Below, piece after piece: positions 2-55,518 of a DNA stretch of 64,000 bases. Position 1 is the first letter of the stretch, and the number at the start of each line of letters is the position of its first letter. Where the stretch lies: NCBI GenBank assembly GCA_016197225.1, contig JACPWC010000071.1, positions 14,217 through 78,216 of the forward strand. The letters are read 5' to 3'. This stretch comes from Chloroflexota bacterium. Its GTDB lineage: Bacteria > Chloroflexota > Anaerolineae > Anaerolineales > VGOW01. The position numbers and the translations under genes are program-made. Below the pieces are notes generated by a model that had not been told where the DNA came from, did not search any database, and saw nothing but the letters and a program-made list of their open reading frames with translations.

Positions 2-958
2 CCGACGTTTTCACAAGCCTGCGCGACTTCAGCGCGCGTGATCGGGAGCGCGGCCTACGAAGTGGAAGCCGGGGACGGCGGGGGAAACGTTGTTCTATGC
101 CTCACCGCCGACCGCACCTCAAACGGGCCGCACCTGACGTACCCGAATCCTGCCAACCCCGGCGGCAAGCCCGACGCCGAAGACTGGGTGTGGGACAATT
201 TCAACTGCGACCCCTTCGCCCGCAATGCGATGATTGAGACGGCGGAAAACGTGGCCCGCGAACAAGAGATCACGGCTCAAGAACAACACGAAGTGATGTT
301 GATGCGCTACGGCCAATATCAAGAGTCGCTCAAAGACGAGGCGGCTTTCCACAAAAAGTATATGGTCACGCCGGTTGAGGTGAATCCATCCGGCAAAAAA
401 GTGGTCGCCACCGTGAAAGACGATGAAGGCGTGTTCCCAACCACCGCTGAAGGACTGGCGAAGCTCAAGCCGGTTGTGCCGAACGGCACGGTCACATTCG
501 GGGCGCAAACCTACCCCGCCGATGGCAACGCCGGAATGATCGTCACTTCGAAAGAGCGGGCGGCTGAACTCAGCCGTGATCGCCAGGTCGAAATTCAAAT
601 TCTCAGCTTCGCCCAGGGGCGAGTGAAGAAGGGCTTCATGCCGATGGCGAATGTTCCGGCGGCACAGCAGGCGCTTGAACAGGCGGGCATCTCGATCAAT
701 AATGTGAAGGCCATCAAGACTCACAACCCGTTCGCGGTGAACGACATCTACTTCTCGCGCGAGATGGGCGTGAGGAAGGAAGCGATGAACAACTACGGCT
801 CGTCGCTTATCTGGGGCCACCCGCAGGGGCCAACCGGGATGCGGCTGATTATGGAATTGATCGAAGAGCTGGTTCTGCTCGGCGGCGGCTACGGGTTGTT
901 CACCGGCTGCGCGGCGGGCGACACGGCGGCGGCGGTGGTGGTGAAGGTGGGAAGTTAG
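2..958 (+). CDS. thiolase-family acyl-CoA acetyltransferase, 5' end cut by the window edge
   Basis: The frame is open from nt 2. Upstream residues FSQACATSARVIGSAAYEV resemble the thiolase nucleophile-Cys region. The C-terminus has GHPQGPTGMRL and GLFTGCAAGD, which are thiolase C-terminal signatures. Confidence 0.85.
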   Translation, partial: PTFSQACATSARVIGSAAYEVEAGDGGGNVVLCLTADRTSNGPHLTYPNPANPGGKPDAEDWVWDNFNCDPFARNAMIETAENVAREQEITAQEQHEVMLMRYGQYQESLKDEAAFHKKYMVTPVEVNPSGKKVVATVKDDEGVFPTTAEGLAKLKPVVPNGTVTFGAQTYPADGNAGMIVTSKERAAELSRDRQVEIQILSFAQGRVKKGFMPMANVPAAQQALEQAGISINNVKAIKTHNPFAVNDIYFSREMGVRKEAMNNYGSSLIWGHPQGPTGMRLIMELIEELVLLGGGYGLFTGCAAGDTAAAVVVKVGS

Positions 959-988
959 AGATTAGAGAATTGGAGATTGGAGATTGCA
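954..988. repeat. heptamer tandem array (TTAGAGA/TTGGAGA units) spanning the thiolase stop codon and the next gene start
   Basis: Sequence gttagagattagagaattggagattggagattgcag has 7-nt periodicity and contains the TAG stop at 956-958 plus several GGAG cores. Confidence 0.8.
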
Positions 989-1909
989 GTGGACGAAGTG
1001 CATGTAGTGACTGGCGCGTTTGGGTACACCGGGCGATATATCACCCGGCGGTTGCTGGCGAGGGGAATCACGGTCAAAACGTTGACCGGCCACCCTGACC
1101 GCCCCAACCCCTTTGGCGATCAGGTGAGCGCCATGCCGTTCAACTTCGACAAGCCCGCTGAGTTGACGAAGAGTCTCGAAGGCGCGAGCGTGCTGTACAA
1201 CACTTACTGGGTGCGCTTCTCGCACGGACAGAACACGCACGAGCGGGCGGTTGCCAACACCCAGACTCTGATCCGGGCCGCTGAAGAAGCGGGCGTGAAA
1301 CGCATGGTTCACGTCAGCATCGCCAAGCCGTCGCTGGACTCGACGCTCCCCTACTATCGCGGCAAGGCGATTATGGAGCAGACTTTGCGCGAGTCAAAAC
1401 TCTCGTATGCCATCTTGCGCCCGACCGTGCTGTTCGGCGTTGAGGCAGGCGAGGACGTGCTCATCAACAACATTGCCTGGCTCCTGCGGCGTTTCCCGGC
1501 GTTCGCCATCCCCGGCGCGGGCGGCTACAAACTCCAGCCAATCTACGTCGAAGACCTGGCCGACCTTGCCGTTAGCGTCGGCCAACAATCAGAAAATGTG
1601 GTCATCAACGCCGTTGGCCCGGAGATATTCACTTTCGATGAACTGGTGCGGTTGGTTGCCAAAGCAGTCAACAGCCGGGCGTGGATCGTCCACGTGCCGC
1701 CGGGTCTGGCGCTGGCTCTGGCTCAATTGATCAGCCTGCTCGTCGGGGACGTGATGCTGACCGGCGACGAAGTGGCCGGGTTGATGGGCGATCTGCTCTT
1801 CGTCGATTCGCCGCCGCCGGGCCAGAAGCGCCTGAGCGAGTGGCTGGCCCAAAACGCGAAGGAAGTCGGCGCGCGTTATGCTTCCGAGTTGGGGCGGCAT
1901 TTCAAATAG
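977..1909 (+). CDS. NAD(P)-binding NmrA/atypical-SDR-like protein (epimerase/dehydratase fold)
   Basis: N-terminal Rossmann motif VTGAFGYTGRYI and a length of about 300 aa. The start is uncertain (TTG 977 or GTG 989/998). Confidence 0.7.
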   Translation: MEIAVDEVHVVTGAFGYTGRYITRRLLARGITVKTLTGHPDRPNPFGDQVSAMPFNFDKPAELTKSLEGASVLYNTYWVRFSHGQNTHERAVANTQTLIRAAEEAGVKRMVHVSIAKPSLDSTLPYYRGKAIMEQTLRESKLSYAILRPTVLFGVEAGEDVLINNIAWLLRRFPAFAIPGAGGYKLQPIYVEDLADLAVSVGQQSENVVINAVGPEIFTFDELVRLVAKAVNSRAWIVHVPPGLALALAQLISLLVGDVMLTGDEVAGLMGDLLFVDSPPPGQKRLSEWLAQNAKEVGARYASELGRHFK

Positions 1910-1925
1910 AGATTGGAGGTTGGAG
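1907..1925. repeat. short TTGGAGR heptamer array covering a stop codon, SD and start context
   Basis: tagagattggaggttggag lies directly before ATG 1926. It includes the TAG stop of the upstream gene and GGAG cores. Confidence 0.7.
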
Positions 1926-3930: not shown

Positions 3931-5523
3931 ATGCCCGACAAAAATCGTGATGTGATTCTAGAATCAGGCATCCCCGTCAAACCCGTTTACGGGCCGGAAG
4001 ACCTCAAGGAGGCTGACGGCATTGGCGGGCCGGGCGAATTCCCGTTCACGCGCGGAATCCATCCGCTCATGTATCGCGCCCGCCCGTGGACGATGCGCCA
4101 GTATGCCGGCTTCGGCACGCCCGCCGAGACCAACGAGCGCTTCAAGTTCCTCATCGGCAACGGGCAGAACGCGCTTAACGTCGCCTTCGATCTGCCGACG
4201 CAGATGGGATTGGACTCCGACGACCCGCTGGCCGAGGGCGAAGTGGGGCGGGTGGGGATGGCGGTGGACACGTTGGCGGACATGGAGACCGCCTTTGACG
4301 GCATCCCCATCGAGAAAATCAGCGTCTCGCTCACCATCAACGCCGTGGCCGCGCCAATTATGGCGATGTATCTCGTCGTGGCCGAGAAGCATGGCGTCCC
4401 GCTCACTGACGTTCGCGGGACTTCGCAGAACGACATTCTCAAAGAATACATAGGGCGCGGAGCGTGGATTTTCCCGGTGGAGCACGGCATCCGGCTGGTG
4501 ACGGACACGATTGAGTTCTGCGCCAAGCAAGCGCCGAAGTATTACCCGGTGAGCGTGTGCGGCTATCACATCCGCGAGTCGGGCGCGAACCCGGTGCAGG
4601 AGATCGCTTACGCTTATTGCATCGCCCGCGCCTACATTCGCGAAGCGCTGGGGCGCGGCCTGAACGTGGACGACTTCGCCGAACGGCTCTCGTTCAACTT
4701 CGACATCTTCGGCAACCTCTTCGAACAGGTGGCAAAATTTCGGGCGGCGCGCAAGCTGTGGGCCAAAATTCTGCGCGACGAGTTCGGGGCGCAGAAGCCG
4801 GGCACGATGCAGATGAAGATGATCGCCGGGGGCGGCGGCGGCGGCCTGACCATTGAACAACCGGAAAACAATATCGTGCGCGGCGCGTATTACGCCCTCA
4901 TCTCCGCCCTCTCCGGCGCGCAAACGATGGCCCTGTGTTCATACGACGAAGCCTACACCATCCCCACTGAGAAGGCGGCGTTGATTTCCCTGCGGACGAT
5001 GCAAATTCTGGTGGAAGAGATGGGATTGTGTGACACCGCCGACCCGCTGGGCGGCTCCTACTATGTCGAATGGCTGACGAACGAAATGGAGCATCGCATC
5101 GCCGCCGAGATGAAGCGCGTGGACGGCGAGATGGGCGGCATTGTTCGCGCCGTGAGCGAGGGCGCGGTGCAACGCGAGGTGGCGCATCAGGCCTTGAAGG
5201 TTGAGCAAGGGTTGCAGGACGGGACGATTCCCAAAGTCGGCGTCAACCGGTATCGAATGAATGAAGAAAGCCGCGACGTTGAATTGCACGACTACAAACC
5301 GGAGCAGGCCGAAGACGCCATCCGCCGACTCAGCGCCGTTCGCGCCAGCCGCGATTCACAGGCAGTGGCCTCGGCGCTGGAGAAAGTGCGCGAGGCGGCG
5401 GCGGACGGCCAGAACGTGATGCCGGCGATGATGGACGCTGTGCGGGCTTACGCAACGCTGGGCGAGATCACCAAGACGTTGAAGGAAGTGTTTGGCGTGT
5501 TTCGAGAGCCGGTGCGGTTGTAA
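3931..5523 (+). CDS. methylmalonyl-CoA-mutase-family catalytic (TIM-barrel) large subunit, without a B12 domain
   Basis: FPFTRGIHPLMYRARPWTMRQYAGFGT, NALNVAFDLPTQMGLDSD and YHIRESGANPVQEIAY are hallmark mutase blocks. The 530-aa protein ends before any cobalamin-binding domain. Confidence 0.9.
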   Translation: MPDKNRDVILESGIPVKPVYGPEDLKEADGIGGPGEFPFTRGIHPLMYRARPWTMRQYAGFGTPAETNERFKFLIGNGQNALNVAFDLPTQMGLDSDDPLAEGEVGRVGMAVDTLADMETAFDGIPIEKISVSLTINAVAAPIMAMYLVVAEKHGVPLTDVRGTSQNDILKEYIGRGAWIFPVEHGIRLVTDTIEFCAKQAPKYYPVSVCGYHIRESGANPVQEIAYAYCIARAYIREALGRGLNVDDFAERLSFNFDIFGNLFEQVAKFRAARKLWAKILRDEFGAQKPGTMQMKMIAGGGGGGLTIEQPENNIVRGAYYALISALSGAQTMALCSYDEAYTIPTEKAALISLRTMQILVEEMGLCDTADPLGGSYYVEWLTNEMEHRIAAEMKRVDGEMGGIVRAVSEGAVQREVAHQALKVEQGLQDGTIPKVGVNRYRMNEESRDVELHDYKPEQAEDAIRRLSAVRASRDSQAVASALEKVREAAADGQNVMPAMMDAVRAYATLGEITKTLKEVFGVFREPVRL

Positions 5524-5528
5524 GAGTA

Positions 5529-5600
5529 AACAGTAACCAGTGAACAGTCAGCAGCAGTGTTCACTGTTCACTGATGACTGTTCACTATTCACTCCTCATG
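5529..5600. repeat. GTTCACT/GTGAACA heptamer array with internal inverted repeat
   Basis: aaacagtaaccagtgaacagtcagcagcagtgttcactgttcactgatgactgttcactattcactcc. The pair cagtgaacag / ctgttcactg forms an inverted repeat. Confidence 0.8.
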
Positions 5601-6776
5601 CCTTTGCTCTCCTCTCTCACCGTCCTCTCTCTCGAACAAGCCACGACTCTCCCGTTCCTAACTCAGCGTTTAGCGCGGGAAGGAGCGCGAGTGATTCGCA
5701 TCGAGACTCCGGGGCGCGGCGACCCGAACCGCTATGTGGGCAAAAAGTTCCTCGATGAAGACGGCATGGCCAGTTACTTCCTGCCGAACAACTGCGGCAA
5801 GCAAGCCATCACCCTCAACCTCGCCGAAGCCGAAGGCCGCTCAATCCTTCAATCTCTAATCTCTAATCTCCCCGTAGACATCTTCGCCACCAACAACCGC
5901 CCGTCCAGTTATCACAAACTTGGCATTGACTACGAGACTATCAAGACCATCCGACCAAACATCATCTGGCTCGGCACCACCGGCTTTGGCCCGGACTCGG
6001 ACGAAGCGGCCTACGACCCGGTTCTGCAAGCCCGCGCCGGTTGGATGGACTTGACCGGCGAACCGGACGGCTCACCGCTCGTCTTTGGCTTGCCGATGGT
6101 TGATCTTGGCGCATCTGAGCACGCTTACGGCGCGTTGATGAAAGCACTGTACCGACGCGCCGTGACTGGCGAAGGAAGCCGAATTGATATTTCCATGTTC
6201 CGGTCAACCGTCTCCTGGATGGCAAGCCCGATCATGCTCACCGCCCTCGGCGAACGGGTGACCCGACGCGGCAACACTCACCAGTTTTTCGCCCCGGCCT
6301 CGGTTTACCCGACTCGCGATGGCTACGTTTACGTGGCCGTCGGCAATGACCGGCAGTGGGAGGCCATCACCAAACTGCCCGGCTTCGAGTCGCTGGCCGA
6401 CGAAACGTATCAACGCAACGCGGGCCGAATCGCCGATGTGGAGAAACTGAACCGGCGACTCGCCGACTGCACCCGAACCATGAGCGTCGCCGATCTCGCA
6501 ACCGCCCTGAACAGCATTGGCGTGCCAATTGCCAAAGTGAACACGCTCCGAGACGTGCTGGAAGACCCTCTGCTGAAAAAGGAATTTACCAACGTTCGCG
6601 ATGAGAGAAGCGGCACAGAAGTGATCCTGCCACCGCTGGCTGAGGCCGGGGTAATTCGTGAATTGCCCCTACGCTTCCCGCCGCGCCTCGGCGAACACAA
6701 CGAGGCGATTTACGGCGAAGCGCTCGGCTTCGATTCCCGAAAAATCGCCAGCCTGAAAGAACACGGTATCATCTGA
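5598..6776 (+). CDS. family III CoA-transferase (CaiB/BaiF-like)
   Basis: LTVLSLEQATTLPFLTQRLAREGARVIRIE is an N-terminal CoA-transferase III pattern, with GFGPDS and a ~390-aa length. ATG 5598 was chosen over the longer ORF start at 5574. Confidence 0.8.
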   Translation: MPLLSSLTVLSLEQATTLPFLTQRLAREGARVIRIETPGRGDPNRYVGKKFLDEDGMASYFLPNNCGKQAITLNLAEAEGRSILQSLISNLPVDIFATNNRPSSYHKLGIDYETIKTIRPNIIWLGTTGFGPDSDEAAYDPVLQARAGWMDLTGEPDGSPLVFGLPMVDLGASEHAYGALMKALYRRAVTGEGSRIDISMFRSTVSWMASPIMLTALGERVTRRGNTHQFFAPASVYPTRDGYVYVAVGNDRQWEAITKLPGFESLADETYQRNAGRIADVEKLNRRLADCTRTMSVADLATALNSIGVPIAKVNTLRDVLEDPLLKKEFTNVRDERSGTEVILPPLAEAGVIRELPLRFPPRLGEHNEAIYGEALGFDSRKIASLKEHGII

Positions 6777-6826
6777 TCACCGTTCACCGTTCACTGATCA
6801 CTGATTACTGTTCACTGGAGACTGAG
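6774..6826. repeat. GTTCACY/GATCACT heptamer array
   Basis: tgatcaccgttcaccgttcactgatcactgattactgttcactggagac covers the stop codon of the CoA-transferase and ends with a GGAG before ATG 6828. Confidence 0.8.
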
Positions 6827-6827
6827 A

Positions 6828-8903
6828 ATGCGATTGGGAATTGACGTCGGCGGCACCTTCACCGACTTTGTTTTGCTCGACGATGCCACCGGGCAGGTCA
6901 ACACCTACAAGTGCCTCACCACGCCCCGCGATCCCTCGGACGCGATTGAAGAAGGCGTTCGCGGGCTGGCCGATCAGGTTCCCGATCACGTCGAACGGCT
7001 GGAAGAGATTATTCACGGCACGACGCTGGTCATCAACGCCATCATTGAGCGCAAAGGCGCGCGCACCGGCTTGATTACGACCCAGGGCTTTCGCGACGTG
7101 CTGGAACTCGGGCGCGAGATTCGTTACGCGCCCTACGATGTCTTCGCCGAAGTCCCGGAGCCGCTCGTTCCCCGCCACCGCCGACTGGAAGTGGTCGAGC
7201 GCCTGCGCGCCGACGGGACTGTCGTGAGGCCGCTTGATGAATCAGAAGCGCGGGAGACAGTGCGGGCGCTGAAAGAGATGGACGTTGAGTCCATCGCCGT
7301 CTGTTTGCTCAACTCATTCGAGAACCCGGCGCACGAACTGGCCCTCAAACGACTCATCTGTGAAGAATTTCCATCGGCTTCTGTTTCAATTTCATACGAA
7401 GTCCTGCCGCAAATCCGCGAATACGAGCGCACCAGCACCACCGTCACCAACGCCTACGTCAAACCGCTCACCGAAAAATATCTGCGGGCGCTCTACAACC
7501 GGCTGGCCTCGCTCGGCTTCAGCGGACGGCTGTTCATCATGCTGTCCAGCGGCGGAGTCACCTCTGCGGAAACTGCCGCCGAGTTTCCCGTCCGCATTAT
7601 CGAGTCCGGGCCGACGGCGGCGGTCATCGCCGGGCAATACTACAGCCGCCTGTTCAATTTGCCGGAAATGTTCTGCTTCGACATGGGCGGCACCACGGCC
7701 AAGTCGTGTTTGATTCAGGAAGGCATCGCCGGGGTTGTGCCGACGTTTGAAGTGGGGCGCGTCCAACGCTTCATGAAGGGAAGCGGCCTTACCATTCAAG
7801 TGCCGGTTGTAGACTTGATGGAGATCGGCGCGGGCGGCGGGAGTATCGCCCGCATGAGCCGCCTCGGCACTTTGCAAGTGGGGCCGCAGAGCGCGGGCGC
7901 GGAGCCGGGGCCGATTTGCTACGGTCGCGGCGGCGTTGAGCCAACCGTCACCGACGCCGATTTGCTGTTGGGCTATCTCGACGCCGATTACTTTCTCGGC
8001 GGCACAATGAAGCTGGATGTTGAGGCGGCCAAACATGGGATCGAAGAACGAGTCGCCAAACCGCTGGGCGTGTCTTATCTTCAAGCCGTGTGGGGCATTC
8101 ACGACCTGATCAACGAGACGATGGCCGCCGCCGCCAAGACGCACATCGCCGAGCGCGGCGGCAACCCGCAGGTGGTCACCGTCGCCGCCTTTGGCGGGGC
8201 GGGGCCGGTTCACGCTTACGGGCTGGCGCGCAAGCTCGGCGCGCCGCGCCTCATTGTTCCGCCCAACGCCGGAGTCGGCTCGGCGCTGGGATTCTTCACC
8301 GCCCCACGCGCCTTCGATCTGGTTCGGAGTCACAAAGCGCCTGTTCTGTCGGCGGACTTTGCGGAGATCGAATCGTTGTTCCGCGAGATGGAGGCCGAAG
8401 GCGAACGCACGTTGCGGAAGGCAGGCGCGGAGGGCGCGATTGAGTTTTTGCGTTCGGTGGATGCGCGGTTTATTGGGCAAGGTTCGGAAACGAATCTGCC
8501 GATTCCCGAACGCGATTTCACGATGCTGACTCTGGCGGACGTGCGCCGCCGCTTCGACGAAACGTATAGCCACTTGTACGGGCGCACGTATCCCGAGTCG
8601 CCAGTTGAGTTTGTCAACTTCCGGGTGCGGGCCAGTTTGCCGGTGCGGTTGCTGGAATTGCCGCGATTGCAAAACAGGAGTGGGCGCGTTCAAGACGCGA
8701 TCAAAGGCGAACGCAGAGCATTTTCCGGCCTCGCCCGCGACTTCATCCCCTTCACCGTGTACGACCGCTACAAGTTATTCCCCGGCGCGACGTTCTCCGG
8801 CCCGGCCATTGTCGAAGAGCGCGAGTCAACCGTCATCATCGGCGAAGAGGCGAGGGTGAGGGTGGATGAGTTTGGATTCTTGTGGATTGATTTGAAAGAA
8901 TAG
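6828..8903 (+). CDS. hyuA: hydantoinase/oxoprolinase A-type subunit (HyuA/acetone-carboxylase-beta-like)
   Basis: MRLGIDVGGTFTDFVL N-terminal ATPase motif, DMGGTTAK, and a 691-aa length, followed by a HyuB-type gene. Confidence 0.85.
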   Translation: MRLGIDVGGTFTDFVLLDDATGQVNTYKCLTTPRDPSDAIEEGVRGLADQVPDHVERLEEIIHGTTLVINAIIERKGARTGLITTQGFRDVLELGREIRYAPYDVFAEVPEPLVPRHRRLEVVERLRADGTVVRPLDESEARETVRALKEMDVESIAVCLLNSFENPAHELALKRLICEEFPSASVSISYEVLPQIREYERTSTTVTNAYVKPLTEKYLRALYNRLASLGFSGRLFIMLSSGGVTSAETAAEFPVRIIESGPTAAVIAGQYYSRLFNLPEMFCFDMGGTTAKSCLIQEGIAGVVPTFEVGRVQRFMKGSGLTIQVPVVDLMEIGAGGGSIARMSRLGTLQVGPQSAGAEPGPICYGRGGVEPTVTDADLLLGYLDADYFLGGTMKLDVEAAKHGIEERVAKPLGVSYLQAVWGIHDLINETMAAAAKTHIAERGGNPQVVTVAAFGGAGPVHAYGLARKLGAPRLIVPPNAGVGSALGFFTAPRAFDLVRSHKAPVLSADFAEIESLFREMEAEGERTLRKAGAEGAIEFLRSVDARFIGQGSETNLPIPERDFTMLTLADVRRRFDETYSHLYGRTYPESPVEFVNFRVRASLPVRLLELPRLQNRSGRVQDAIKGERRAFSGLARDFIPFTVYDRYKLFPGATFSGPAIVEERESTVIIGEEARVRVDEFGFLWIDLKE

Positions 8904-8907
8904 CTGT

Positions 8908-9105
8908 CACCGCAAAGACGCAAAGAGCGCAAAGAAGATCACAAAGTCTCTTTTGTTTATCTTAGCGGCCTTCGCGGGCAGTGTCCCTGTATAGGGCAGG
9001 TGTGTTTTTTTTGTGCGCGAAAGGCCTTGAAAACAAGCTGTTTCGCAAGCGCCAAAAGGCTACCTGCCCGTTATAGGGCCACTACCCCTTCGCGCCTTCG
9101 CGGTG
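8908..9105. repeat. CGCAAAG-type palindromic intergenic element (MITE/REP-like)
   Basis: The left end is caccgcaaagacgcaaagagcgcaaagaag. The right end, cttcgcgccttcgcggtg, is its approximate reverse complement. There is an internal partial inverted repeat (ccctgtatagggcaggt / acctgcccgttataggg). Confidence 0.6.
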
Positions 9106-12081: not shown

Positions 12082-14598
12082 ATGAGTTCATTCCCAAACC
12101 AAGCAAACGTCGTCATCATCGGGGCCGGCATTGTCGGCAACAGCATGGCCTACCACCTGGCCCGGCTGGGCTGGAAGGACATTGTGTTGCTGGACAAAGG
12201 GCCTCTGCCCAACCCCGGCGGTTCCACCGGCCATGCTTCAAACTTCATTTTCCTCACCGACCACTCCAAAGAAATGACCAAGTTCACGTTGGACAGCGTG
12301 AAGCAATATAGAGAATTGGATGTGTTTATTCAGAGCGGCGGCATTGAGGTGGCCCGCACCACCGAACGCGCTGAAGAACTCAAGCGCCGCCTCGCCGCCT
12401 CCAAGTCGTGGGGCATTGAGTCGGAGTTGATCTCGCCGGCGCGGGTGAAGGAACTCGTGCCGTATGTCAACGATAAGATCATCCTCGGCGGTTTCTACAC
12501 GCCCGGCATCGGCACAGTGGACTCCTTGCGCGGCGGCACGCTCATGCGCGAGAAGGCGCAAGCGATGGGCGCTCTGCAAGTGTTTGCCAACACCGAAATT
12601 TTGGGCGTCGAAACCCAAAATGGCCGCGTGCGCGGCATCAAGACCAGCCGGGGCGACATCAAAGCGGAAGTGATAGTCGTGTGCTGTGGCATCTGGAGTC
12701 CGCGCATTGCCCGCATGGCCGGCGCATCCATCCCGCTCACGCCCGCCGTCCACCAGATGATCAGCGTGGGGCCGGTGCCGCTCTTCGCCAACACCAAAGG
12801 CGAGATCGAATATCCCATCATCCGCGACATGGACACCAACGGTTACGAGCGTCAGCACGGCAGCGATCTGGAAGTCGGCTCGTACGATCACCGCCCGATC
12901 CTGATGGAACCCGATGACATCCCGCCGAACGAAAAAGCGGCGCTCTCCCCGACCGAGATGCCGTTCACCAAAGAGGATTTCGATCCGTCGCTGGAGCGGG
13001 CGTTGGAACTGATCCCCGACATTTTGGCCGACGAAAAAGTGGGCATCCGCTACGCCATCAACGGCTTACTCTCGCTCACGCCCGACGGCTTCCCGCTCCT
13101 CGGCGAGACGCCCGAAGTGAAAGGGCTGTGGGCAGTGTCCGCCATTTGGATCAAGGAAGCGCCCGGCATCGCCCGCGCGGTGGCCGAGTGGATGACGAAC
13201 GGCCAGCCGGAGATTGACCCGAGCAGTTCAGACATCGCCCGCTTCTATGGCCATCAGAAAACCAAGACCCACGTCAACGCCCGCACCGCCGAAGGCTTCA
13301 ACAAGACTTACGGCATTGTGCATCCGCGTGAGCAGTGGGCGTCCAACCGTTACGTGCGAACCAGCCCGCTCTTCGAGCGTCAGAAGGCGCTGGGCGCTGT
13401 TTTCTTTGAAGCGATGGGCTTCGAGCGCCCGCAGTGGTACGAGTCCAACACTAAACTGCTGGCGAAGTACGGCGAGCAGGTGATGCCGCGCAAGTACGAG
13501 TGGGACGGGCGCTGGTGGTCGCCCATCATCAACGCCGAGCATTTGGCGATGCGCGAAAGCGTGGGCATGGTTGACCTCTCGGCCTTCGCCATTTTCGACG
13601 TGACCGGCCCGACTGCGCTCGACTACATTCAAAAGATGGCCGTGGCGCAGATGGATGTTCCGGTGGGCCGCGTGGTTTACACGCCATTGCTGAACGTGGC
13701 CGGCGGCATCAAGTCCGATCTGACCATCATGCGCCTCAGTCAGAATCACTTCCGCGTGGTCACCGGCGTCTTCGACGGGCCGCGCGACAAGAAGTGGTTC
13801 GCCGATCACTTGCCCGCCGACGGCTCAACCCAACTGAGCGATGTCAGTTCGGCCTGGACGACGATTGGCATGTGGGGGCCGAATGCCCGCAAGCTGGTGC
13901 AGTCGGCCACCGAACACGACATGTCGCACGCCGCCTTCCCCTTTGCCACCTGCCAACAAGTGGACTTTGGCCCGATCCGCGCCATCGCTTCGCGCATTTC
14001 TTACGTGGGCGAACTGGGCTGGGAAATTTACGCGCCGATGGAACAGGCCGGGCGCTTGTGGGATATTTTGTGGGAAGCGGGGCAACAGTTCAACGTCGCT
14101 CCGGTAGGCATCGGCGTCTACGGCACAACCGCCCGTCTGGAGAAATCCTATCGCCTGTACGGCAACGAACTGGAGTTGGAATACAACCTGGTCGAGGCCG
14201 GCCTGGCCCGGCCACAGGTGAAGCCCCAGGACTTCGTCGGCAAGGAAGCGTATCTCAAGCAACGAGGCGGGCAACCTGCCGCCATCCTCTGCACGCTCAC
14301 CGTGGACGACAACACTTCCAAGTCCGGCTTCAAGCGCTACATGCAAGGCCGCGAACCGATCCTCACGCCCGACGGCAAACCGATTGTGGACGCACATGGC
14401 CGCGGCTCGTACGTCACCAGCGCCGGCTCCGGCCCCTCCATCGGCAAGACCATCCTCATGAGCTACCTGCCGCCGCAACACGCCAAAGTCGGCGCGAGCC
14501 TCATGGTCGAATATTTCAACGAGCATTACCCGGTGACCGTGGCCGCCGTTGGCCCGACGCCGGTGTTTGATCCGAAGAATGAAAGAATGAAGGGTTGA
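12082..14598 (+). CDS. dimethylglycine/sarcosine-dehydrogenase-like flavoprotein (FAD oxidoreductase fused to a GcvT aminomethyltransferase fold)
   Basis: VVIIGAGIVGNSMAYHLA dinucleotide-binding motif, 838 aa, and a C-terminal half with GcvT-like blocks (VGMVDLSAF, GELGWEIY). ETF genes follow immediately. Confidence 0.85.
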   Translation: MSSFPNQANVVIIGAGIVGNSMAYHLARLGWKDIVLLDKGPLPNPGGSTGHASNFIFLTDHSKEMTKFTLDSVKQYRELDVFIQSGGIEVARTTERAEELKRRLAASKSWGIESELISPARVKELVPYVNDKIILGGFYTPGIGTVDSLRGGTLMREKAQAMGALQVFANTEILGVETQNGRVRGIKTSRGDIKAEVIVVCCGIWSPRIARMAGASIPLTPAVHQMISVGPVPLFANTKGEIEYPIIRDMDTNGYERQHGSDLEVGSYDHRPILMEPDDIPPNEKAALSPTEMPFTKEDFDPSLERALELIPDILADEKVGIRYAINGLLSLTPDGFPLLGETPEVKGLWAVSAIWIKEAPGIARAVAEWMTNGQPEIDPSSSDIARFYGHQKTKTHVNARTAEGFNKTYGIVHPREQWASNRYVRTSPLFERQKALGAVFFEAMGFERPQWYESNTKLLAKYGEQVMPRKYEWDGRWWSPIINAEHLAMRESVGMVDLSAFAIFDVTGPTALDYIQKMAVAQMDVPVGRVVYTPLLNVAGGIKSDLTIMRLSQNHFRVVTGVFDGPRDKKWFADHLPADGSTQLSDVSSAWTTIGMWGPNARKLVQSATEHDMSHAAFPFATCQQVDFGPIRAIASRISYVGELGWEIYAPMEQAGRLWDILWEAGQQFNVAPVGIGVYGTTARLEKSYRLYGNELELEYNLVEAGLARPQVKPQDFVGKEAYLKQRGGQPAAILCTLTVDDNTSKSGFKRYMQGREPILTPDGKPIVDAHGRGSYVTSAGSGPSIGKTILMSYLPPQHAKVGASLMVEYFNEHYPVTVAAVGPTPVFDPKNERMKG

Positions 14599-14656
14599 GA
14601 GAGAAAAGAGAAAAGAGAATTGGAGAATTAGAGAATTCTCTAATCCTCCAATTCTC
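14599..14656. repeat. palindromic form of the GAGAATT/GGAGAAT heptamer array
   Basis: The 19-nt arms are gagaattggagaattagag (14615-14633) and ctctaatcctccaattctc (14638-14656). They match 18/19 as an inverted repeat around AATT and are preceded by gagagagaaaagagaaaagag. Confidence 0.8.
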
Positions 14657-14667
14657 TATTACCTGTC

Positions 14668-15432
14668 ATGAACATTTTAGTTTGCGTCAAACGTGTCCCG
14701 GCGGCGGGCGGCAAGATGTCGCTGACGGCGGACGAACAGGACATTGAAACGCGCTACTTCAGCTTCACAGTCAGCCCGCACGAAGAATGCGCGATTGAAG
14801 AAGCGGTGCGGTTGATTGAGGCGCACGGCGGAAGCTCGACTGTGCTGACGCTCGGCCCCGAGGTTGCCACCGAGCAATTGCGCGAAGGCATGGCGCTTGG
14901 CATCGAGCGGGCCATCCTGCTGGAAACCGATGGCCGCGAGTGGGATGGCGGGGCAACAGCGGGGGCTATCGTCGAGGCCGTTCGGGCGCAAGAGGCGGCT
15001 GGACACAAGTTCGATCTTCTGCTCTTCGGCAACGAGGCGGCGGACTCGGGCGGCTATCAAGTCGGCATCCGCGTCGCCCACGCCCTCGACTTGCCGTGCG
15101 TCACCGGAGTCAAAGAGTTGAAGATTCGGGATGGCAAGGCCGTTGCCAAACGGCAGGCCGGCGGCGGCTGGGACATTTTTGAAGTTCCCCTGCCCGCCGT
15201 CATCAGCGTGAAAGAGGGCATCAACCTGCCGCGCTATCCGTCTCTGCCGGGCCGCCTCAAAGCCAAGAAGAAGCCCATCGAACGCCTCACCCCAACCTGG
15301 CCCGGAAACGGTTTGGAAAAGATTCGACTCAAACTGCCCGCCGAGCGCGATCATCAAGTTGAGATTTTGGGCAAAGGCCCGGAAGCGGCGGTGAAGGCCG
15401 TTGAGTTGTTGCAAAGATTGGGAATGGTATGA
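14668..15432 (+). CDS. etfB: electron transfer flavoprotein beta subunit
   Basis: MNILVCVKRVP start and EtfB-typical length and blocks. It overlaps the etfA start. Confidence 0.9.
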   Translation: MNILVCVKRVPAAGGKMSLTADEQDIETRYFSFTVSPHEECAIEEAVRLIEAHGGSSTVLTLGPEVATEQLREGMALGIERAILLETDGREWDGGATAGAIVEAVRAQEAAGHKFDLLLFGNEAADSGGYQVGIRVAHALDLPCVTGVKELKIRDGKAVAKRQAGGGWDIFEVPLPAVISVKEGINLPRYPSLPGRLKAKKKPIERLTPTWPGNGLEKIRLKLPAERDHQVEILGKGPEAAVKAVELLQRLGMV

Positions 15433-23092: not shown

Positions 23093-26059
23093 TCACCATT
23101 CTGCAAGTTTCCAGATTTCCGGTTGCCATTTGCTGGTATTCGCGCCAACGCCGGCCTCGACGCCAATTTCGGCGAACAGGACGACGGCTCGTTTGAGATG
23201 TTGCATGGCGGCTTCGGTTTGGCCGTCGGTGTGTAAAAGATCGGCCAGGTTGTTGTGCAGAGCCGCTTCGCGGTGACGGTCGCCCTGCGAAGCGCACAAC
23301 TTCAAGGCCCGTTCAGTGAGCGTGATTGCAGTCGCCGTCTGTTCATTAGCCCCAAAGGCCAGCGCCAGATTATTCAATGCCGCCGCCTGCGCGCCCGTGT
23401 CGCCCAAAGTTTCGGCCAGCGCCAGGCTACGCTCAAGATGAAGTTGAGCAGTCGGGAGGTCGGCCTGACTGCTGGCGAGAATGCCGAGAATGTTGTGCGC
23501 TTGCGCCAGCGCCCGCTGGTCGCCGCCGGCCTCGGCCAGCGTCAGCGCCTGCCGAGCCAGATCGAGCGCCCGCTCTGTTTGACCTCGATGATGAGCGGTG
23601 AGACTCCAGTCGGCCAGAACACGGGCGCGGCCACCTTGAGAACCGTCCACGCCGAACGCCGCCAGCGCGGCCTCAAAATGGCGCTCGGCCAGTTCCCCAT
23701 CACCACGTCGTTCGTAAACATTGCCCAGTTTGTGTTCCAGTTCGGCCAGCGCCTCGAGTGAGCCGAGCGCCGCCGCCGTCTGGTAACTCGTCAGGGCAAC
23801 GCCGTATTCGCCGGCCAGCGTTTGCAGATCGCCAATCGCTTCGTGCAGGGCGGTGGGATCAGGATGGCCTAAGGCCAGCGCCGAGCGATAGTGCGAGAGG
23901 GCTTCGGCATTGGCATACAGCTTGCGGGCGTGGTCGCCCGCCAGTTTGTAGTAGTGGGCGGCTTCGGCGTTGCGACCGCCCAGCCGGTAGTGCAAGGCAA
24001 CCTGGCCGGCGAGCGGCCCGGGCGGCGTTTGAGCGCGGGCGCGCGAGGTGAGGGCTTCGGCCACGCGCCGGTGCAGGAGCCGGCGGCGGGCGAGGCTGGT
24101 TTCGTCGTAAACCAGGGCGCGCAGTTTGTCATGGCCGAAGTCATACGTCAGCGCGCCGTCGCCGCCGCCCACTTCGTGGACGAGACCGCGCGCGATCAGA
24201 GATTCCAGTCCGGCCACCGTTTCTTCGTCACTGCGGCCACTGGCAACTTGCAGAGTGTCGAAGTCAAACGAGCGCCCGATGACGGCGGCGGCGCCGAGCA
24301 ATTGTCTGCCGGCGTCGTCAATTATTGCCAGGCGCGAGTGAAGCAGGCCGCGCACACCTTCGGGCAGAGGCCACTCGGCCTCAGGCCCGCCGCCGCCCAG
24401 CGCCGCCAGATATTCGACGAGAAAGAGCGGGAGGCCTTCGGTCTCGTGGTACAGCCGCTCCGCAATCCGGCTTTCGGGCGCGGACTTCATCGTTAGTTGA
24501 ACCAGTTCTGCGACTGCGGATTGGCTGAGCCGCGAGAGCGAGAGCAGGTGGGCCAGCCCGGCCCGTTGCGATTCGGCCAGCGCCTGACGCAGGCGATGCC
24601 CGGTCGGCACCTGCTCGTCGCGCCACGTTCCCAGCAGGCACAGGCGATGGCCGCGCAGGCGGCGCGCCAGGTAGGCGAAGAGGTCCAGCGAGGCCTCGTC
24701 AATCCAGTGGAGGTCGTCCAGAAAAACGACGGTGGGCAAGTCGTTTCCCAACGCCAGCAAAATCTGGGTGATGCTTTCAAAGAAGCGGCTTTGCGCGCCG
24801 GGGCTGTCGAGAGGCGGTGTGGGCGGCAGGTCGCTCCTCAGGTTAGCCAGGTCAGGCAACAGCCGGGCGGCCTCGCTCAACCAGTGTGGCTCCAATGACT
24901 CAAGCCGGGCGGCAATGGCCGGTTGCCTCAGCGCCGATTGCAGGGCTTCGAGGAAGGGGCCATAGGCCAGGTTGCGTTCGCCTTCGTAGCAACGGGCGGG
25001 GAGCGTGGTCGCGCCTTGAGCCTGCGCCCGCTCGATGAAGGCCTCTGCCAGTCGCGTCTTGCCGATCCCAGCTTCACCCTCTATCACGATCAACGCGCCG
25101 TCCGCGCTCTGAGAGGCATACTGATTTTGCAAGGCGGCAACTTCGGCGGAACGACCGATGAGGGGGAGGTTAGAGGTTAGAGGCTGGAGGTTAGAAGTTA
25201 GAGGTTGGAGATTGGACGCCTGAACTACGGCGGGAAGTTGGACGCCTGAACTACGGCGGGAAGTTGGGATTTGGGATTTGGGGCTTGGAGTTTCCGTCGT
25301 CGGGCGGTTCTCTTTGATAGCCTCGTACAGCCGCGTCGTCTCTTCCAGCGGCGGCACGCCGAGTTCTTCGTCAAGAATTCGCGCACACTCCTGATACTGG
25401 CGCAGGGCGGCGGCGCGTTGCCCGGCGCAATCATACAACGACATGAGCCAGCGGTGAGCCGGTTCGTGCATCGGGTCGAGGGAGAGCCAGCGCCGAGCGT
25501 GGGCAATGGCGGCGTCCACTTCGCCGGCTGTGCTGTGACACTTCACCAGCCGTTCCAAAGCGTCGGCCAGTTCGCGGCGCAGTCCTTCACTCTGAAAAAA
25601 TTGCCAGTCGTCGAAGGCGGGGCTGTCGCGCAGGCTGAAGCCGGCCAGGAAGTCGTCGTGGTAAAGCGTCACTGCCTCAGAAAGGGGATGGACGCAACGC
25701 GGGCAGGGGTCGTGAGGCGGGTGACCGTGAGTCCGGCAATCGGCCAGGCGGCGGTGAAACTCGGCCACGTCCACCCAGGCCGCCCCCGTCTCCAAATTCA
25801 CCGCCTCCCGCTCAATCCTCAATCCTTCTCCATCCAGCGCCTTATTCAACACCGAGAGAGTGCGGCGCAGGGCGGCGTGCGCTTTGGCCTCGTCGGCGTC
25901 AGGCCAGAAGAGGGTTGCCAGGCGCTCGCGGCTGTGCAGTTCGCCCGTCACCGCCAGGTAGACGGCGAGGGCGGTGGCTTTGCGCGTGTCCACTTCGATG
26001 GGTGCGCCGTCGAGTTCGACGCGGGGCGAGCCGAGGAGGTGAAAAGCAAGCCGGGGCAT
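23093..26059 (-). CDS. SARP/BTAD-family transcriptional activator fused to an AAA/STAND ATPase and TPR repeats (AfsR-like)
   Basis: N-terminal LLGSPRVELDGAPIEVDTRKATALAVYLA is a winged-helix motif, and a BTAD region follows. The Walker A is IEGEAGIGKTRL, and the C-terminal TPR-like repeats are rich in LGNVYERRGD/AHNILGIL patterns. Confidence 0.85.
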   Translation of the reverse strand: MPRLAFHLLGSPRVELDGAPIEVDTRKATALAVYLAVTGELHSRERLATLFWPDADEAKAHAALRRTLSVLNKALDGEGLRIEREAVNLETGAAWVDVAEFHRRLADCRTHGHPPHDPCPRCVHPLSEAVTLYHDDFLAGFSLRDSPAFDDWQFFQSEGLRRELADALERLVKCHSTAGEVDAAIAHARRWLSLDPMHEPAHRWLMSLYDCAGQRAAALRQYQECARILDEELGVPPLEETTRLYEAIKENRPTTETPSPKSQIPTSRRSSGVQLPAVVQASNLQPLTSNLQPLTSNLPLIGRSAEVAALQNQYASQSADGALIVIEGEAGIGKTRLAEAFIERAQAQGATTLPARCYEGERNLAYGPFLEALQSALRQPAIAARLESLEPHWLSEAARLLPDLANLRSDLPPTPPLDSPGAQSRFFESITQILLALGNDLPTVVFLDDLHWIDEASLDLFAYLARRLRGHRLCLLGTWRDEQVPTGHRLRQALAESQRAGLAHLLSLSRLSQSAVAELVQLTMKSAPESRIAERLYHETEGLPLFLVEYLAALGGGGPEAEWPLPEGVRGLLHSRLAIIDDAGRQLLGAAAVIGRSFDFDTLQVASGRSDEETVAGLESLIARGLVHEVGGGDGALTYDFGHDKLRALVYDETSLARRRLLHRRVAEALTSRARAQTPPGPLAGQVALHYRLGGRNAEAAHYYKLAGDHARKLYANAEALSHYRSALALGHPDPTALHEAIGDLQTLAGEYGVALTSYQTAAALGSLEALAELEHKLGNVYERRGDGELAERHFEAALAAFGVDGSQGGRARVLADWSLTAHHRGQTERALDLARQALTLAEAGGDQRALAQAHNILGILASSQADLPTAQLHLERSLALAETLGDTGAQAAALNNLALAFGANEQTATAITLTERALKLCASQGDRHREAALHNNLADLLHTDGQTEAAMQHLKRAVVLFAEIGVEAGVGANTSKWQPEIWKLAEW
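25165..25290. repeat. composite repeat block inside the SARP gene: GGTTAGA heptamers, a 26-bp tandem duplication and TTGGGAT heptamers
   Basis: ggaggttagaggttagaggctggaggttagaagttagaggttggagattgg is followed by ttggacgcctgaactacggcgggaag twice (25212-25237 and 25238-25263), then ttgggatttgggatttgggg. On the minus strand it encodes SNLQPLTSNLQPLTSNLP. Confidence 0.85.
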
Positions 26060-33906: not shown

Positions 33907-34015
33907 CCTTGCGCCCTTGCGTTAAAAGCTTTAACGCAAAGTCGCAAAGACGCCAGGGCGCAAAGAAATAGATAAAAGACCTTTGCGTTCTCTGCGTCCT
34001 CGCGTCTTTGCGTTA
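33907..34015. repeat. CGCAAAG-type palindromic element
   Basis: ccttgcgcccttgcgttaaaagctttaacgcaaagtcgcaaagacgc ... gcgtcctcgcgtctttgcgtta. The terminal motifs are TAACGCAAAG / CTTTGCGTTA. Confidence 0.75.
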
Positions 34016-36771: not shown

Positions 36772-38025
36772 ATGAAAAAACTGGAAGTTGTTCCTAACCC
36801 CTGGCTCCGCCTCATGCGCTACGCGTGGGTTGTGACGGCTGTGCTGGCGTTCGGCATTCTCATCGCCGCCCTGCCACACTACTACGCCAGAGTCCTGGTG
36901 GAGGCGGCCAACCAGCTCGTGGACGGGCCGCCCGAGTTCGTCTTCGCGATGGATTTCATCGGCACGTTTGCTTCCGTTCTCGCCGCGGTCGTCTCCCTTG
37001 CCGTCGCGGTTCTGCTGTTCAGGCGCAAAGCGCGCGACGGCATGGCGCTGTTCCTGTCATTCTTTCTGCTCGGCTACGGCACGATGATGGCGGGGCCGCT
37101 GGAAGCGCTTTTTGATTTTGGCGGCCCGGGCAGTGAGTTTGCCCTGCTGGCCCAGACCGGTCTGCTGACGGCGCCAATGATTGCCTTCGGTTTCCTTTTT
37201 CCGAACGGGAGATTTGTCCCGCGCTGGAGCCGGGGCCTCCTGGTCATCTCGCTTTTTCTCCTGCCACTGCTGGCCTCGACGCCGGTGAGCCAATGGTTTT
37301 CGACCCCCACGCCCGCGACCCTCGTGGGCGAATTCGGTCTGGGGGCGCTCCTCCTCGCGGCGCTCGGCGCGCAAGTCCACCGCTATCGCCGGGTGTCGAA
37401 TTTCGACGAGCGCCAGCAGACGAAATGGGTGCTGTATGGCTTCGTGCTTTTCTTTGCCCTGATAGTTGTCTTGACGATCCCGTACTCGATCTTGGAGGCC
37501 ATCCCGAAAGGCAGGCGCATTCCCTGGTGGGGGCCTCTGAACGGCGCGCTGTGGTGGCTCTCGTTGTGTGTTCTGCCCGTTTCGATTGCGCTGGCCATTC
37601 TGCGGCATCGCCTGTACGACATTGACATCCTCATCCGCCGCACCCTGCAATACTCGGTGTTGACCGGCCTGCTTGCCTTCACCTACTTTGGCAGTATCGT
37701 CGTCCTGCAAAGTATTTTCACAGCAGTCACCGGCCAGCAGTCGCCGGTCGTCCTCGTCCTCTCCACTCTCGCCATCGCCGCCCTGTTCTTCCCGCTTCGC
37801 AACCGGGTGCAAGATTTCATTGACCGCCGCTTCTTTCGCAAAAAGTACGACGCGGCTAAAGTCATCGCCGAGTTCGCCGCCACCTGCCGCGACGAGACGG
37901 ATTTGGATAAACTGACAGCACGGCTGGTGGAAGTGGTAGACGAGACGATGCAACCTGAAAGTGTGACGCTGTGGCTAAAAGACTCTAACGCAAAGCCGCA
38001 AAGGCGCGAGGGCGCAAAGGAATGA
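36772..38025 (+). CDS. polytopic membrane protein, paralog 3
   Basis: HRYRRVSNFDERQQTKWV, LRHRLYDIDILIRRTLQYS, DRRFFRKKYDAAKVIAEFAATCRDETDLDKLTARLVEVVDETMQPESVTLWLKDSNAKP. It starts 3 nt after the kinase stop. Confidence 0.75.
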   Translation: MKKLEVVPNPWLRLMRYAWVVTAVLAFGILIAALPHYYARVLVEAANQLVDGPPEFVFAMDFIGTFASVLAAVVSLAVAVLLFRRKARDGMALFLSFFLLGYGTMMAGPLEALFDFGGPGSEFALLAQTGLLTAPMIAFGFLFPNGRFVPRWSRGLLVISLFLLPLLASTPVSQWFSTPTPATLVGEFGLGALLLAALGAQVHRYRRVSNFDERQQTKWVLYGFVLFFALIVVLTIPYSILEAIPKGRRIPWWGPLNGALWWLSLCVLPVSIALAILRHRLYDIDILIRRTLQYSVLTGLLAFTYFGSIVVLQSIFTAVTGQQSPVVLVLSTLAIAALFFPLRNRVQDFIDRRFFRKKYDAAKVIAEFAATCRDETDLDKLTARLVEVVDETMQPESVTLWLKDSNAKPQRREGAKE

Positions 38026-38060
38026 AAAGAATCTTTGCGACCTTGCGTCTTTGCGTTAAA
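37986..38060. repeat. CGCAAAG-type palindromic element overlapping the last codons and the stop of paralog 3
   Basis: taacgcaaagccgcaaaggcgcgagggcgcaaaggaatgaaaagaatctttgcgaccttgcgtctttgcgtta. The TGA stop at 38023-38025 lies inside the element. Confidence 0.8.
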
Positions 38061-55499: not shown

Positions 55500-55518
55500 G
55501 CGACAAGTGAGTCGAGCA

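Follow-up and report, generated by a model that had tools for sequence, protein, structure and literature searches.

Do tandem 7-nt units that fill a gene junction provide the stop codon and the ribosome-binding site of the flanking genes, or were they built from signals that were already in place? The question is raised by two consecutive gene junctions in a 64,000-nt stretch of contig JACPWC010000071.1 from a Chloroflexota bacterium, which we refer to as the window. The junctions connect a thiolase gene, a gene for an NAD(P)H-binding short-chain dehydrogenase/reductase (SDR) and a gene for a B12-binding-domain protein, as identified by Pfam, and both are made of one heptamer family, TTRGAGR, which is equivalent to GAGATTR and is called family A here. 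Their features, which include putative Shine-Dalgarno (SD) sequences, are as follows.

954-988, + strand: thiolase/SDR array, reading GTTAGAG ATTAGAG AATTGGAG ATTGGAG ATTGCA; about 4.5 family-A units (TTAGAGA/TTGGAGA), one of them of 8 nt, which make up the entire 30-nt spacer
956-958, + strand: thiolase stop codon TAG, within the first array unit
972-975, + strand: second GGAG, 7 nt upstream of the NCBI-annotated start ATT-983
979-982, + strand: GGAG core, 6 nt before GTG-989, likely SD sequence
989-1909, + strand: NAD(P)H-binding SDR/NmrA-like gene, its start placed at GTG-989 from homologue N-termini (MSETHVVTG)
1907-1909, + strand: SDR stop codon TAG, part of the array
1907-1925, + strand: SDR/B12 array of family A, TAGAGAT TGGAGGT TGGAG, followed by ATG-1926; the entire 16-nt spacer
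1915-1919, + strand: GGAGG core, 6 nt before ATG-1926, likely SD sequence
1922-1925, + strand: further GGAG, directly abutting ATG-1926
1926-2333, + strand: B12-binding-domain gene (Pfam)

The observation of heptamer-built gene junctions, with which the original prediction began, was confirmed. The spacers at 959-988 (30 nt) and 1910-1925 (16 nt) consist entirely (100%) of TTRGAGR heptamers that begin at the upstream TAG, so that the arrays lie exactly between stop and start and hold both the TAG and the GGAG cores. Tandem Repeats Finder (consensus GAGATTG) reported 958-986 with period 7, 4.0 copies, 86% matches and a score of 42, and 1909-1927 with period 7, 2.7 copies and a score of 31. The second array is weak when taken alone and falls under the score threshold of our custom period scan, which otherwise agrees with period 7; its unit family is the same as that of 958-986. 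The nearest relatives of the SDR protein in GTDB genomes belong to Anaerolineales/Chloroflexota metagenome-assembled genomes (MAGs), and both the B12 and the SDR proteins are labelled Chloroflexi/Chloroflexota bacterium in NCBI, in agreement with the earlier impression of a non-cyanobacterial host.

Metagenome bins can mis-assemble short repeats; nevertheless, we give practically no credence to an assembly or sequencing artefact in low-complexity DNA. The arrays span 19-35 nt, far below sequencing read length, and the reading frames that flank them are intact. The SDR/B12 junction is base-identical in the Logan assembly of run SRR12113391 (L001), which may be the MAG's own source sample, and each junction variant of the relatives is identical across 2-3 separate assemblies or samples (L002 = L202; L203 = L204 = L205; L207 = L208 = L209). 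Independent assemblies, from which the arrays could have been absent, therefore agree on the junctions.

Arrays of period 7 are in excess in the window as a whole. At a score of at least 10, the window holds 11 of them, compared with 0.18 in dinucleotide shuffles (maximum 2), which is an excess of about 60-fold; periods 5, 6, 8, 9 and 10 give 0-3 arrays each at the same score. Overall, 11-15 period-7 arrays were counted per 64 kb versus 0.2-1.4 in shuffles, and 1.17 Mb of related loci contain 45 period-7 arrays versus 5-27 for other periods. The window contains the two-unit pattern TTRGAGRTTRGAG 6 times in exact form (0.02 expected) and 13 times when one mismatch is allowed (0.28 expected). 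Additionally, the placement of the arrays relative to genes is non-random, since they cover 3.2% of intergenic but only 0.44% of coding DNA, at least 7-fold by bases. Genes were called by the rule that the G+C content at third codon positions (GC3) exceeds GC1 and GC1 exceeds GC2, and longest-open-reading-frame calling was dropped, as it picked antisense shadow frames. The GC3 rule fails in a low-GC3 block at 47.5-51.6 kb, which overestimates the intergenic fraction (14%); thus, the true intergenic enrichment is at least this large. Such enrichment by itself would be expected of any repeat with a period not divisible by 3. When the entire window was scanned against Rfam at gathering thresholds, neither a match nor an rRNA was obtained; therefore, the arrays do not belong to any known RNA family.

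The sequence context would fit a role of the arrays in translation initiation. Of 55 window genes, 26 carry GGAG ahead of an early start at a distance of 3-11 nt, and the modal spacing is 6 nt. At both focal junctions the GGAG(G)-to-start spacing is 6 nt, which equals the window mode and lies within the SD range of 4-9 nt. From this we infer that the 3′-proximal GGAG(G) of each array would serve as the ribosome-binding site (RBS) of the downstream gene. The array RNA of both junctions is predicted to be unstructured and unpaired (z-scores of -0.1 and +0.8) and does not form the hairpin by which REP/REPIN elements are recognized; a leader of this kind, unstructured and rich in purines, would allow efficient initiation. 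Pairing between the two focal arrays was considered and ruled out, given that both share one orientation.

The start of the SDR gene illustrates the same arrangement. The NCBI annotation gives a protein of 308 aa (MAVDEVH...) that starts with ATT at 983 within the array (window 983-991), whereas the homologue N-termini (MSETHVVTG) favour GTG-989. Exact-protein look-ups of the SDR from TTG-977 or from M plus GTG-989 returned no match because the NCBI entry starts at ATT-983; the B12 protein was matched in this way. This ATT is itself 7 nt past the previous GGAG; thus, every unit offers a potential SD sequence.

Whether the array supplied these signals or copied them can be read from orthologous junctions. 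The loci were ranked by SDR amino-acid identity, with the window as reference, and the thiolase/SDR spacers compare as follows.

L207-9, SDR identity 75%: 9 nt, TAG AGATTAGCC ATG, no GGAG
L206, SDR identity 80%: 17 nt, TAG AGGATCGGAGAATTGGC GTG
L002, SDR identity 92%: 23 nt, TAG AGGTTGGAAGTTGGAGGTTGATG GTG
Window, reference: 30 nt
L203-5, SDR identity 89%: 60 nt, unrelated heptamer hairpin
L003, SDR identity 79%: no period-7 array

At the SDR/B12 junction, the start codon ATG is preceded by the following sequences.

L207: hairpin not of family A, then CAGGAGAATTACAG
L206: ATTAGAGGATTGGAGAATTGGAA
L002: AATTGGAGATTAGAG
Window: AGATTGGAGGTTGGAG

All six lineages have the thiolase stop at the same codon; four of them (window, L002, L206 and L207-9) use TAG, L203-5 use TAA and L003 uses TGA. 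The comparison of orthologous junctions that had been proposed thus yields a graded series of thiolase/SDR spacers of 9, 17, 23 and 30 nt, in which the window exceeds L002 by exactly 7 nt. At the SDR/B12 junction, the start-proximal GGAGAAT-type unit is present in one copy in L207 and in 2-3 copies in L206, L002 and the window. Orthologues with 1-4 units keep the stop position, and the start-proximal GGAG is also kept, except in the 9-nt thiolase/SDR spacer of L207. The L203-5 spacer (L203 5941-6000) reads TAACCAA TGACCAA TAACTGA / TCAGTTA GTGGTTA TTAGTTA TTGGTTA. The MCM/CoA-transferase spacer, a 74-nt array spacer in the window, measures 5 nt in L207.

L207 has a stop and a GGAGAAT-type SD sequence at junctions with little or no array (AGATTAGCC, CAGGAGAATTACAG), which speaks against the proposal that arrays are a ready-made supply of stops and RBSs. 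Given the single SD sequence of L207 and the shared stop position, the array copied the stop and SD signals and did not provide them. The TAG stop and the GGAGAAT-type SD sequence thus appear to be ancestral, older than the expansion, and the short stretch that separates them would have been inflated in a lineage-specific manner, with each step adding roughly one unit.

We therefore consider it probable that the junctions are heptanucleotide simple sequence repeats (SSRs), similar to the short tandemly repeated repetitive (STRR) sequences of cyanobacteria, which arose by slipped-strand mispairing and are tolerated in operon-internal spacers and permissive coding loops, with the 3′-proximal GGAG acting as the SD sequence. 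Slipped-strand mispairing would repeatedly duplicate a 7-nt stretch flanked by a TAG stop and a GGAGAAT-type SD sequence that were both already present. A single A/G transition would interconvert TAGAG and TGGAG, and because these are one transition apart, one unit family can hold stop-like and SD-like versions. Gain or loss of units in mid-array would leave the stop, the frames and the distance from the last GGAG to the start unchanged; whole-unit indels would be neutral in these respects because only the last usable GGAG matters, so that copy number could drift freely in operon-internal spacers. As the period is not a multiple of 3, the repeat would be purged from most coding DNA. The forward array would now be an unstructured purine-rich leader with GGAG(G) 6 nt before the start as a putative RBS. 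The arrays thus carry stop and SD signals but seem to be built from them rather than recruited to provide them. A phase-variable contingency SSR was also considered and rejected, since the arrays occupy the stretch from the stop to the last GGAG and unit indels leave stop, frame and SD spacing unmoved.

The window contains further arrays of this kind between genes. In its first 15 kb, heptamer arrays occupy 80-100% of five co-directional stop-to-start spacers, and the units differ between junctions. Beyond the two focal junctions, the following arrays were found.

5522-5593, + strand: inverted array pair, (AACAGTR)n then (CACTGWT)n, in the MCM/CoA-transferase spacer (5523-5598; array 70 of 74 nt); no GGAG
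6768-6817, + strand: ATCACYG/TTCACYG array, from the CoA-transferase stop TGA (6774-6776) to the SD sequence of the hydantoinase A gene (spacer 6776-6828; array 41 of 51 nt)
14600-14660, + strand: family-A-like arrays (AGAGAAA/GGAGAAT) followed by their complement, a hairpin before etfB (spacer 14598-14668; array 61 of 69 nt)
39331-39347, + strand: (GATCAAC)2.4 array reaching up to and into the start codon (ATG 39346) of a pyridine-nucleotide disulphide oxidoreductase gene (15 nt ahead of the ATG, abutting the start)
42936-43030, + strand: inverted arrays (GATTTWG ... AAATCCN) between two STAS-domain genes, directly after a TAA stop (spacer 42936-43046; array 57 of 109 nt)

The units of these further spacers are thus AACAGTR/CACTGWT, ATCACYG, AGAGAAW, GATTTWG and GATCAAC, most of them without GGAG; in 6768-6817, the GGAG present is mostly outside the array. 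Two of the inverted pairs are predicted to fold as hairpins, 5518-5600 with a free energy (dG) of -29.8 kcal/mol (z-score -4.1) and 14596-14668 with -27.9 kcal/mol (z-score -5.4). The arrays at 954-988, 1907-1925, 5555-5593, 6768-6817, 14600-14660 and 39331-39347 end 0-10 nt from a start codon, and that at 42936-43030 ends 15 nt from one.

Short-unit arrays also occur in, or at the ends of, the intergenic spacers at 8911-8935, 33934-34013, 37989-38056, 40890-40917 and 57911-57938. They include 8-nt CGCAAAGR units, two of them as inverted pairs, and a 9-10-nt unit ACGCAGATGA with its complement AAATCTGCGT; the AAATCTGCGT unit also adjoins family-A arrays in the metagenome locus L150. The low-GC3 block (47515-51622) contains three open reading frames (ORFs) with a GC3 of 0.46-0.51, versus about 0.75 elsewhere in the window, which encode DruA (PF14236, E-value 1.6e-77), a NurA-like protein and a HerA/DUF87-like ATPase; the block has the appearance of a defence island gained by horizontal transfer.

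Four arrays of the window lie within ORFs, and the reading frame is open in all of them.

5851-5870, - strand: (AATCTCT)x3, family A reversed, inside the CoA-transferase gene, where it is read as QSLISNL
25166-25282, + strand: (GAGGTTA)n of family A, a 26-nt duplication and (TTGGGAT)n, 117 nt in all, in-frame and reversed within the gene of a 988-aa minus-strand regulator
55602-55633, + strand: (CACTGWT)n array in a NosD-like ORF, just past an apparent N-terminal hydrophobic (signal-like) segment
57285-57347, + strand: family-A forward-then-reverse hairpin of 63 nt (21 codons), in-frame in the gene of a NosF-like ABC ATPase

ORF-internal arrays sit in apparently permissive segments, namely a BTAD/AAA linker, the region after a hydrophobic segment and a segment of the ABC ATPase that is absent from homologues. 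The array at 25166-25282 encodes residues 259-298 of a BTAD-AAA-TPR regulator, exactly between the BTAD (96-248) and AAA_16 (299-475) domains, and its family-A part (25166-25216) is reversed relative to its gene. Its 25212-25263 portion is a perfect 26-nt direct duplication (TTGGACGCCTGAACTACGGCGGGAAG), a 26-mer found nowhere else in the window, and TTGGACGC also follows family-A units in the SDR/B12 spacer of L002. We considered and rejected the QSLISNL array as an insertion in the CoA-transferase; the alignment to PDB homologues differs by only +2 aa, so that the array lies largely over a homologous helix.

The hairpin in the nosF-like sequence is also predicted to be strong (57280-57352, dG -42.3 kcal/mol, z-score -7.5). 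The match of the NosF-like ATPase to Pseudomonas NosF (7o0y_B) splits at query residues 110/133, and P0244, the closest homologue found (89% local identity; 94% in alignment), does not have the hairpin segment. At the DNA level, the window reads TTGAAA-[GAAAGAAAAGAGATGAGAGATGAGAGATTGGAGATTGAGCAATCTCTCGTCTCTCATCTCTCATCTCCCATA]-GAACGT versus TTGAAGCGGGTGAGTCTGAATCGT in L210. At this codon position, different family-A hairpins are present in several homologues of 65-72% identity, such as that of L211, ATAGAGATTGGAGATTGGAGAT followed by CAATCTCCAATCTCCAATCTCC; the loci compared were window 57285-57347, L210, L211 and L213. These data suggest that the nosF site is a recurrent insertion hot spot, or that an old insertion was repeatedly and precisely lost. 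Comparison of the site with and without the insertion revealed no target-site duplication and no fixed element ends. The NosD-like and NosF-like parts form one ORF in the window (55441-57906) and in L210, and they are separate genes with a 4-nt overlap in the more distant relatives (L211/L213).

Family A is not confined to this lineage. An exact scan for GAGATTRGAGATTRGAGATT found it in more than 120 metagenome contigs with a GC content from 0.37 to 0.67; this number, and the counts from metagenome contigs given below, refer to the matches listed. Named genomes with family A belong to Anaerolineales (L002), Anaerolineae (L027) and Ardenticatenaceae (L050). A low-GC contig, L170, has (GAGATTG)4 at 2775-2804 between co-directional genes, in reverse orientation and 6 nt before an ATG; its enolase is 94% identical to that of a Bacteroidetes MAG, and it is thus a Bacteroidota contig. 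In the metagenome contigs, 39 of 108 arrays are forward-then-reverse hairpins. The non-hairpin arrays between co-directional genes comprise 10 forward and 6 reverse ones, and those internal to ORFs comprise 19 in the reverse, stop-free orientation versus 5 forward. Distances to starts were evaluated for ATG and GTG only and with a GC-frame filter, since the unit itself contains TTG; a GGAG 6-8 nt from the start was found only in L104 and L173. The IMG/VR viral contigs contain 66 stretches with (GAGATTR)3 (L215-L280), none with a reverse arm. Their stop-array-start junctions are 8 forward versus 2 reverse, with a GGAG-to-start spacing of 3-8 nt. One 35-kb contig, IMGVR_UViG_3300031949_000113 (L226, L232, L259, L274 and L277), holds at least 7 forward arrays, including ...GTAGTAGAGATTAGAGATTAGAGATTGGAGATTGCG ATG, and several of them form stop-array-GGAG-N6-ATG junctions of the focal design.

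The inverted pairs have a marked polarity. In family A, the purine arm comes first in 41 pairs and second in 1 (loci L082-L201, among the matches listed). When both strands were scored by arm composition, the ratio was 48 to 6 at seeded loci, again among the matches listed, and 12 to 1 at unseeded ones. The pairs of the window at 5522-5593, 14600-14660, 57285-57347, 33934-34013 and 37989-38056 were included in this comparison; the pair at 42936-43030 is an exception to the polarity.

These occurrences bear on whether the arrays could be a selected stop-plus-RBS module, that is, a spacer for efficient termination and re-initiation, or tandem SD sequences or a standby site for coupled translation. 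The usable GGAG exactly 6 nt from the start at both focal junctions and the predicted lack of structure would fit this idea, as would the fact that the window, L002 and L206 all retain the start-proximal family-A unit ahead of the B12 gene. The 35-kb viral contig, with its repeated occurrences of the identical design GGAGATTGCG-ATG and of stop-array-start junctions, points in the same direction, together with the forward bias and the 3-8-nt spacing of the viral arrays at stop-and-start sites and the same design in L104 and L173. Nevertheless, we regard such a module as unlikely. A single SD sequence is enough in L207; the TAG stop appears older than the array; sister junctions are built of units without GGAG; and the L203 lineage swapped its spacer for an unrelated heptamer hairpin. 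Additionally, reverse-orientation family-A arrays precede fabG-like genes that have a separate AAAGAGG SD sequence (L002 4390-4418 and L203 1746-1808), and the metagenome co-directional junctions show only the 10:6 ratio of orientations, with few GGAG at SD distance. The stop-plus-SD role that had been proposed for the arrays thus stands in part. Relatives, some metagenome contigs and about 8 viral junctions share the stop-array-GGAG-N3-8-start design; a dedicated, ready-made device is not supported, given the sister junctions without GGAG units and the reverse, hairpin, post-gene and ORF-internal copies. The SD-bearing configuration is found repeatedly but is by no means obligatory.

Heptanucleotide tandem repeats have been on record since 1990 in cyanobacteria, and later in Beggiatoaceae, Bacteroidetes, Xanthomonas and Chloroflexus. 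The STRR sequences of Calothrix, Anabaena and Nostoc are short tandemly repeated repetitive heptanucleotides, with the consensus sequences CCCCAGT (STRR1), TTGGTCA (STRR2) and CAACAGT (STRR3). The resemblance of the focal arrays to STRR sequences, which had been noted from the beginning, is apt; both consist of tandem 7-nt units, with several unit families per genome, dispersed and mostly intergenic, as judged here from 64 kb of the genome. In contrast, the focal unit TTRGAGR matches none of these consensus sequences and carries a stop triplet and an SD core, and the host is a Chloroflexota bacterium, not a cyanobacterium. The window family AACAGTR is identical in 6 of 7 positions to STRR3 (CAACAGT), and TGACCAA in the L203 spacer is STRR2 (TTGGTCA) read on the complementary strand.

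Many bacteria have an excess of heptameric SSRs in their intergenic DNA, with polymerase slippage as the proposed cause, according to the summary in PMC4692102, which cites Mrazek 2007; the window shows both the period-7 excess and the intergenic enrichment that this summary describes. The G-rich heptamers GGGAATC of Xanthomonas and GGGGAYT of Nostoc are intergenic, variable in length and sequence between relatives and in some cases inverted (Rehm et al. 2015, PMC4692102), and the TTGGGAT and GGATTTW arrays of the window resemble them. However, G-quadruplexes have been proposed for those units, which are impossible for the focal unit, and those arrays have no described SD or stop role. In the same phylum, a family of (GATAGRA)n heptamer satellites is scattered through Chloroflexus aurantiacus (Subirana and Messeguer 2019, PMC6749651). 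Its rotation TAGRAGA holds TAG and, if R is G, GGAG, and is close to TTRGAGA; the units nevertheless differ at 1-3 positions, the host belongs to Chloroflexia rather than Anaerolineae, and that study has no analysis of gene position. Literature searches linking heptanucleotide tandem repeats to Chloroflexi in those words found nothing, and searches with repeat strings of (GAGATTR)n found no description of the repeat, the one paper matched being an unrelated human-genetics study. The focal arrays share the structural features of the known heptamer families but not their unit sequences, and the detail that distinguishes them would be that the unit itself is a putative SD sequence.

A parallel in placement is provided by the TAACTGA repeats, which in Beggiatoaceae, cyanobacteria and Bacteroidetes sit within a few nt ahead of start codons (MacGregor 2015, PMC4679880). 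These repeats show 7-nt-step indels between strains and reverse-orientation copies within ORFs (PMC4679880). As in family A, 2-6 direct copies lie near starts, the forward orientation is stop-rich, the ORF-internal copies are reversed and the distribution across phyla is patchy. However, TAACTGA has little SD character and the genes downstream of it are mostly without an SD sequence, whereas TTGGAGA would be an SD sequence at the correct spacing; furthermore, many of the arrays described here pair into hairpins. The TAACTGA unit itself was seen here once, in the L203 spacer.

The same work reviews CspB binding of heptamer repeats and proposes post-transcriptional regulation for the TAACTGA repeats (PMC4679880). 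By analogy, each unit of our arrays, in the mRNA leader or in single-stranded DNA, could be a cis-acting site bound by a single-strand-binding protein (a cold-shock protein, ribosomal protein S1 or a CsrA-like GGA binder) that regulates translation of the downstream gene. The arrays lie directly before start codons, they are single-stranded in the predicted folds, and the GAGATTR unit is conserved across distant taxa. Such a function is nevertheless very unlikely, since one genome holds many different units, both orientations are present, copies occur within ORFs and as stable hairpins, and copy number and sequence change fast between close relatives.

The inverted pairs recall yet another class of repeats. 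REP/REPIN elements (PMC3116915) are short, many-copy intergenic palindromes, and the forward-then-reverse array pairs form comparable hairpins. In contrast, the focal arrays are direct repeats without a hairpin, and a 7-nt periodicity is not a feature of REP elements; no RAYT-like gene was seen in the 27 of about 58 window ORFs that were scanned, and the copy-number gradients between orthologues point to in-situ expansion. In a wider sense, the arrays could be miniature mobile or templated elements, similar to REP/REPIN or to miniature inverted-repeat transposable elements, inserted by an enzyme or spread by phages, of which the focal arrays would be half-elements or remnants. The 63-nt nosF hairpin, absent from the closest homologue found and matched by similar hairpins at the same site in distant homologues, would be in line with such elements, as would the strict arm polarity, the presence of family A in Bacteroidota and viral contigs and the viral contig with at least 7 arrays. 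We still hold mobile elements of this type to be improbable. The graded unit-number differences at the orthologous focal junctions are those that in-situ expansion predicts; the nosF site shows no visible target-site duplication or fixed ends; no transposase-like gene is among the 27 Pfam-scanned ORFs (of about 58 in the window); and the viral arrays are without any reverse arm.

Several observations weigh against local slippage from an existing stop and SD sequence as the full account of the junctions. The spacer steps of 9, 17, 23 and 30 nt are only approximately multiples of 7, and the 33 nt by which the window and L002 differ at the SDR/B12 junction cannot be divided into whole 7-nt units. 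The SD role is deduced from sequence, with the 16S 3′ end lying outside the window, and the SDR start is ambiguous between ATT-983 (NCBI annotation) and GTG-989 (homology). Local slippage also leaves unexplained the recurrence of the unit at the unrelated window sites 5851, 25166 and 57285, and its occurrence in L027, L050, the Bacteroidota contig L170, more than 120 listed metagenome contigs and 66 viral stretches. The same applies to the purine-arm-first polarity (41 to 1; 48 to 6; 12 to 1) and to the nosF pattern, with hairpins in homologues of 65-72% identity and none in the closest found. Finally, slippage gives no reason for a period of 7.

A different reading would take (GAGATTR)n and its sister arrays as the footprint of an active, sequence-selective process, either a writer that is templated or driven by an enzyme, or a miniature mobile element that phages may carry. 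We see this as distinctly unlikely. If true, the process would act across phyla (Anaerolineae, Bacteroidota and viral contigs) and build purine-arm-first palindromes. It would colonise stop-to-start spacers and insert repeatedly and in-frame at protein loops such as the nosF site, and the focal junctions would be elements domesticated as SD-bearing spacers.

Under the account that we prefer, expansion by slippage between an existing stop and an existing SD sequence, the two gene junctions are a local example of the 7-base-repeat excess known in some bacteria. To what is on record, the locus adds an Anaerolineales lineage with operon-internal spacers that consist wholly of such repeats, a graded series of orthologues (9, 17, 23 and 30 nt) in which the array appears to grow from its stop/SD context, and a unit whose stop-like TAGAG and SD-like TGGAG versions are one transition apart. 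In-frame insertions of arrays create new peptide segments in real enzymes, and start-site annotation within such arrays is unreliable, as exemplified by the ATT start called by NCBI. The arm polarity, the recurrent nosF site and the spread over phyla and viral contigs provide testable handles on the mechanism.

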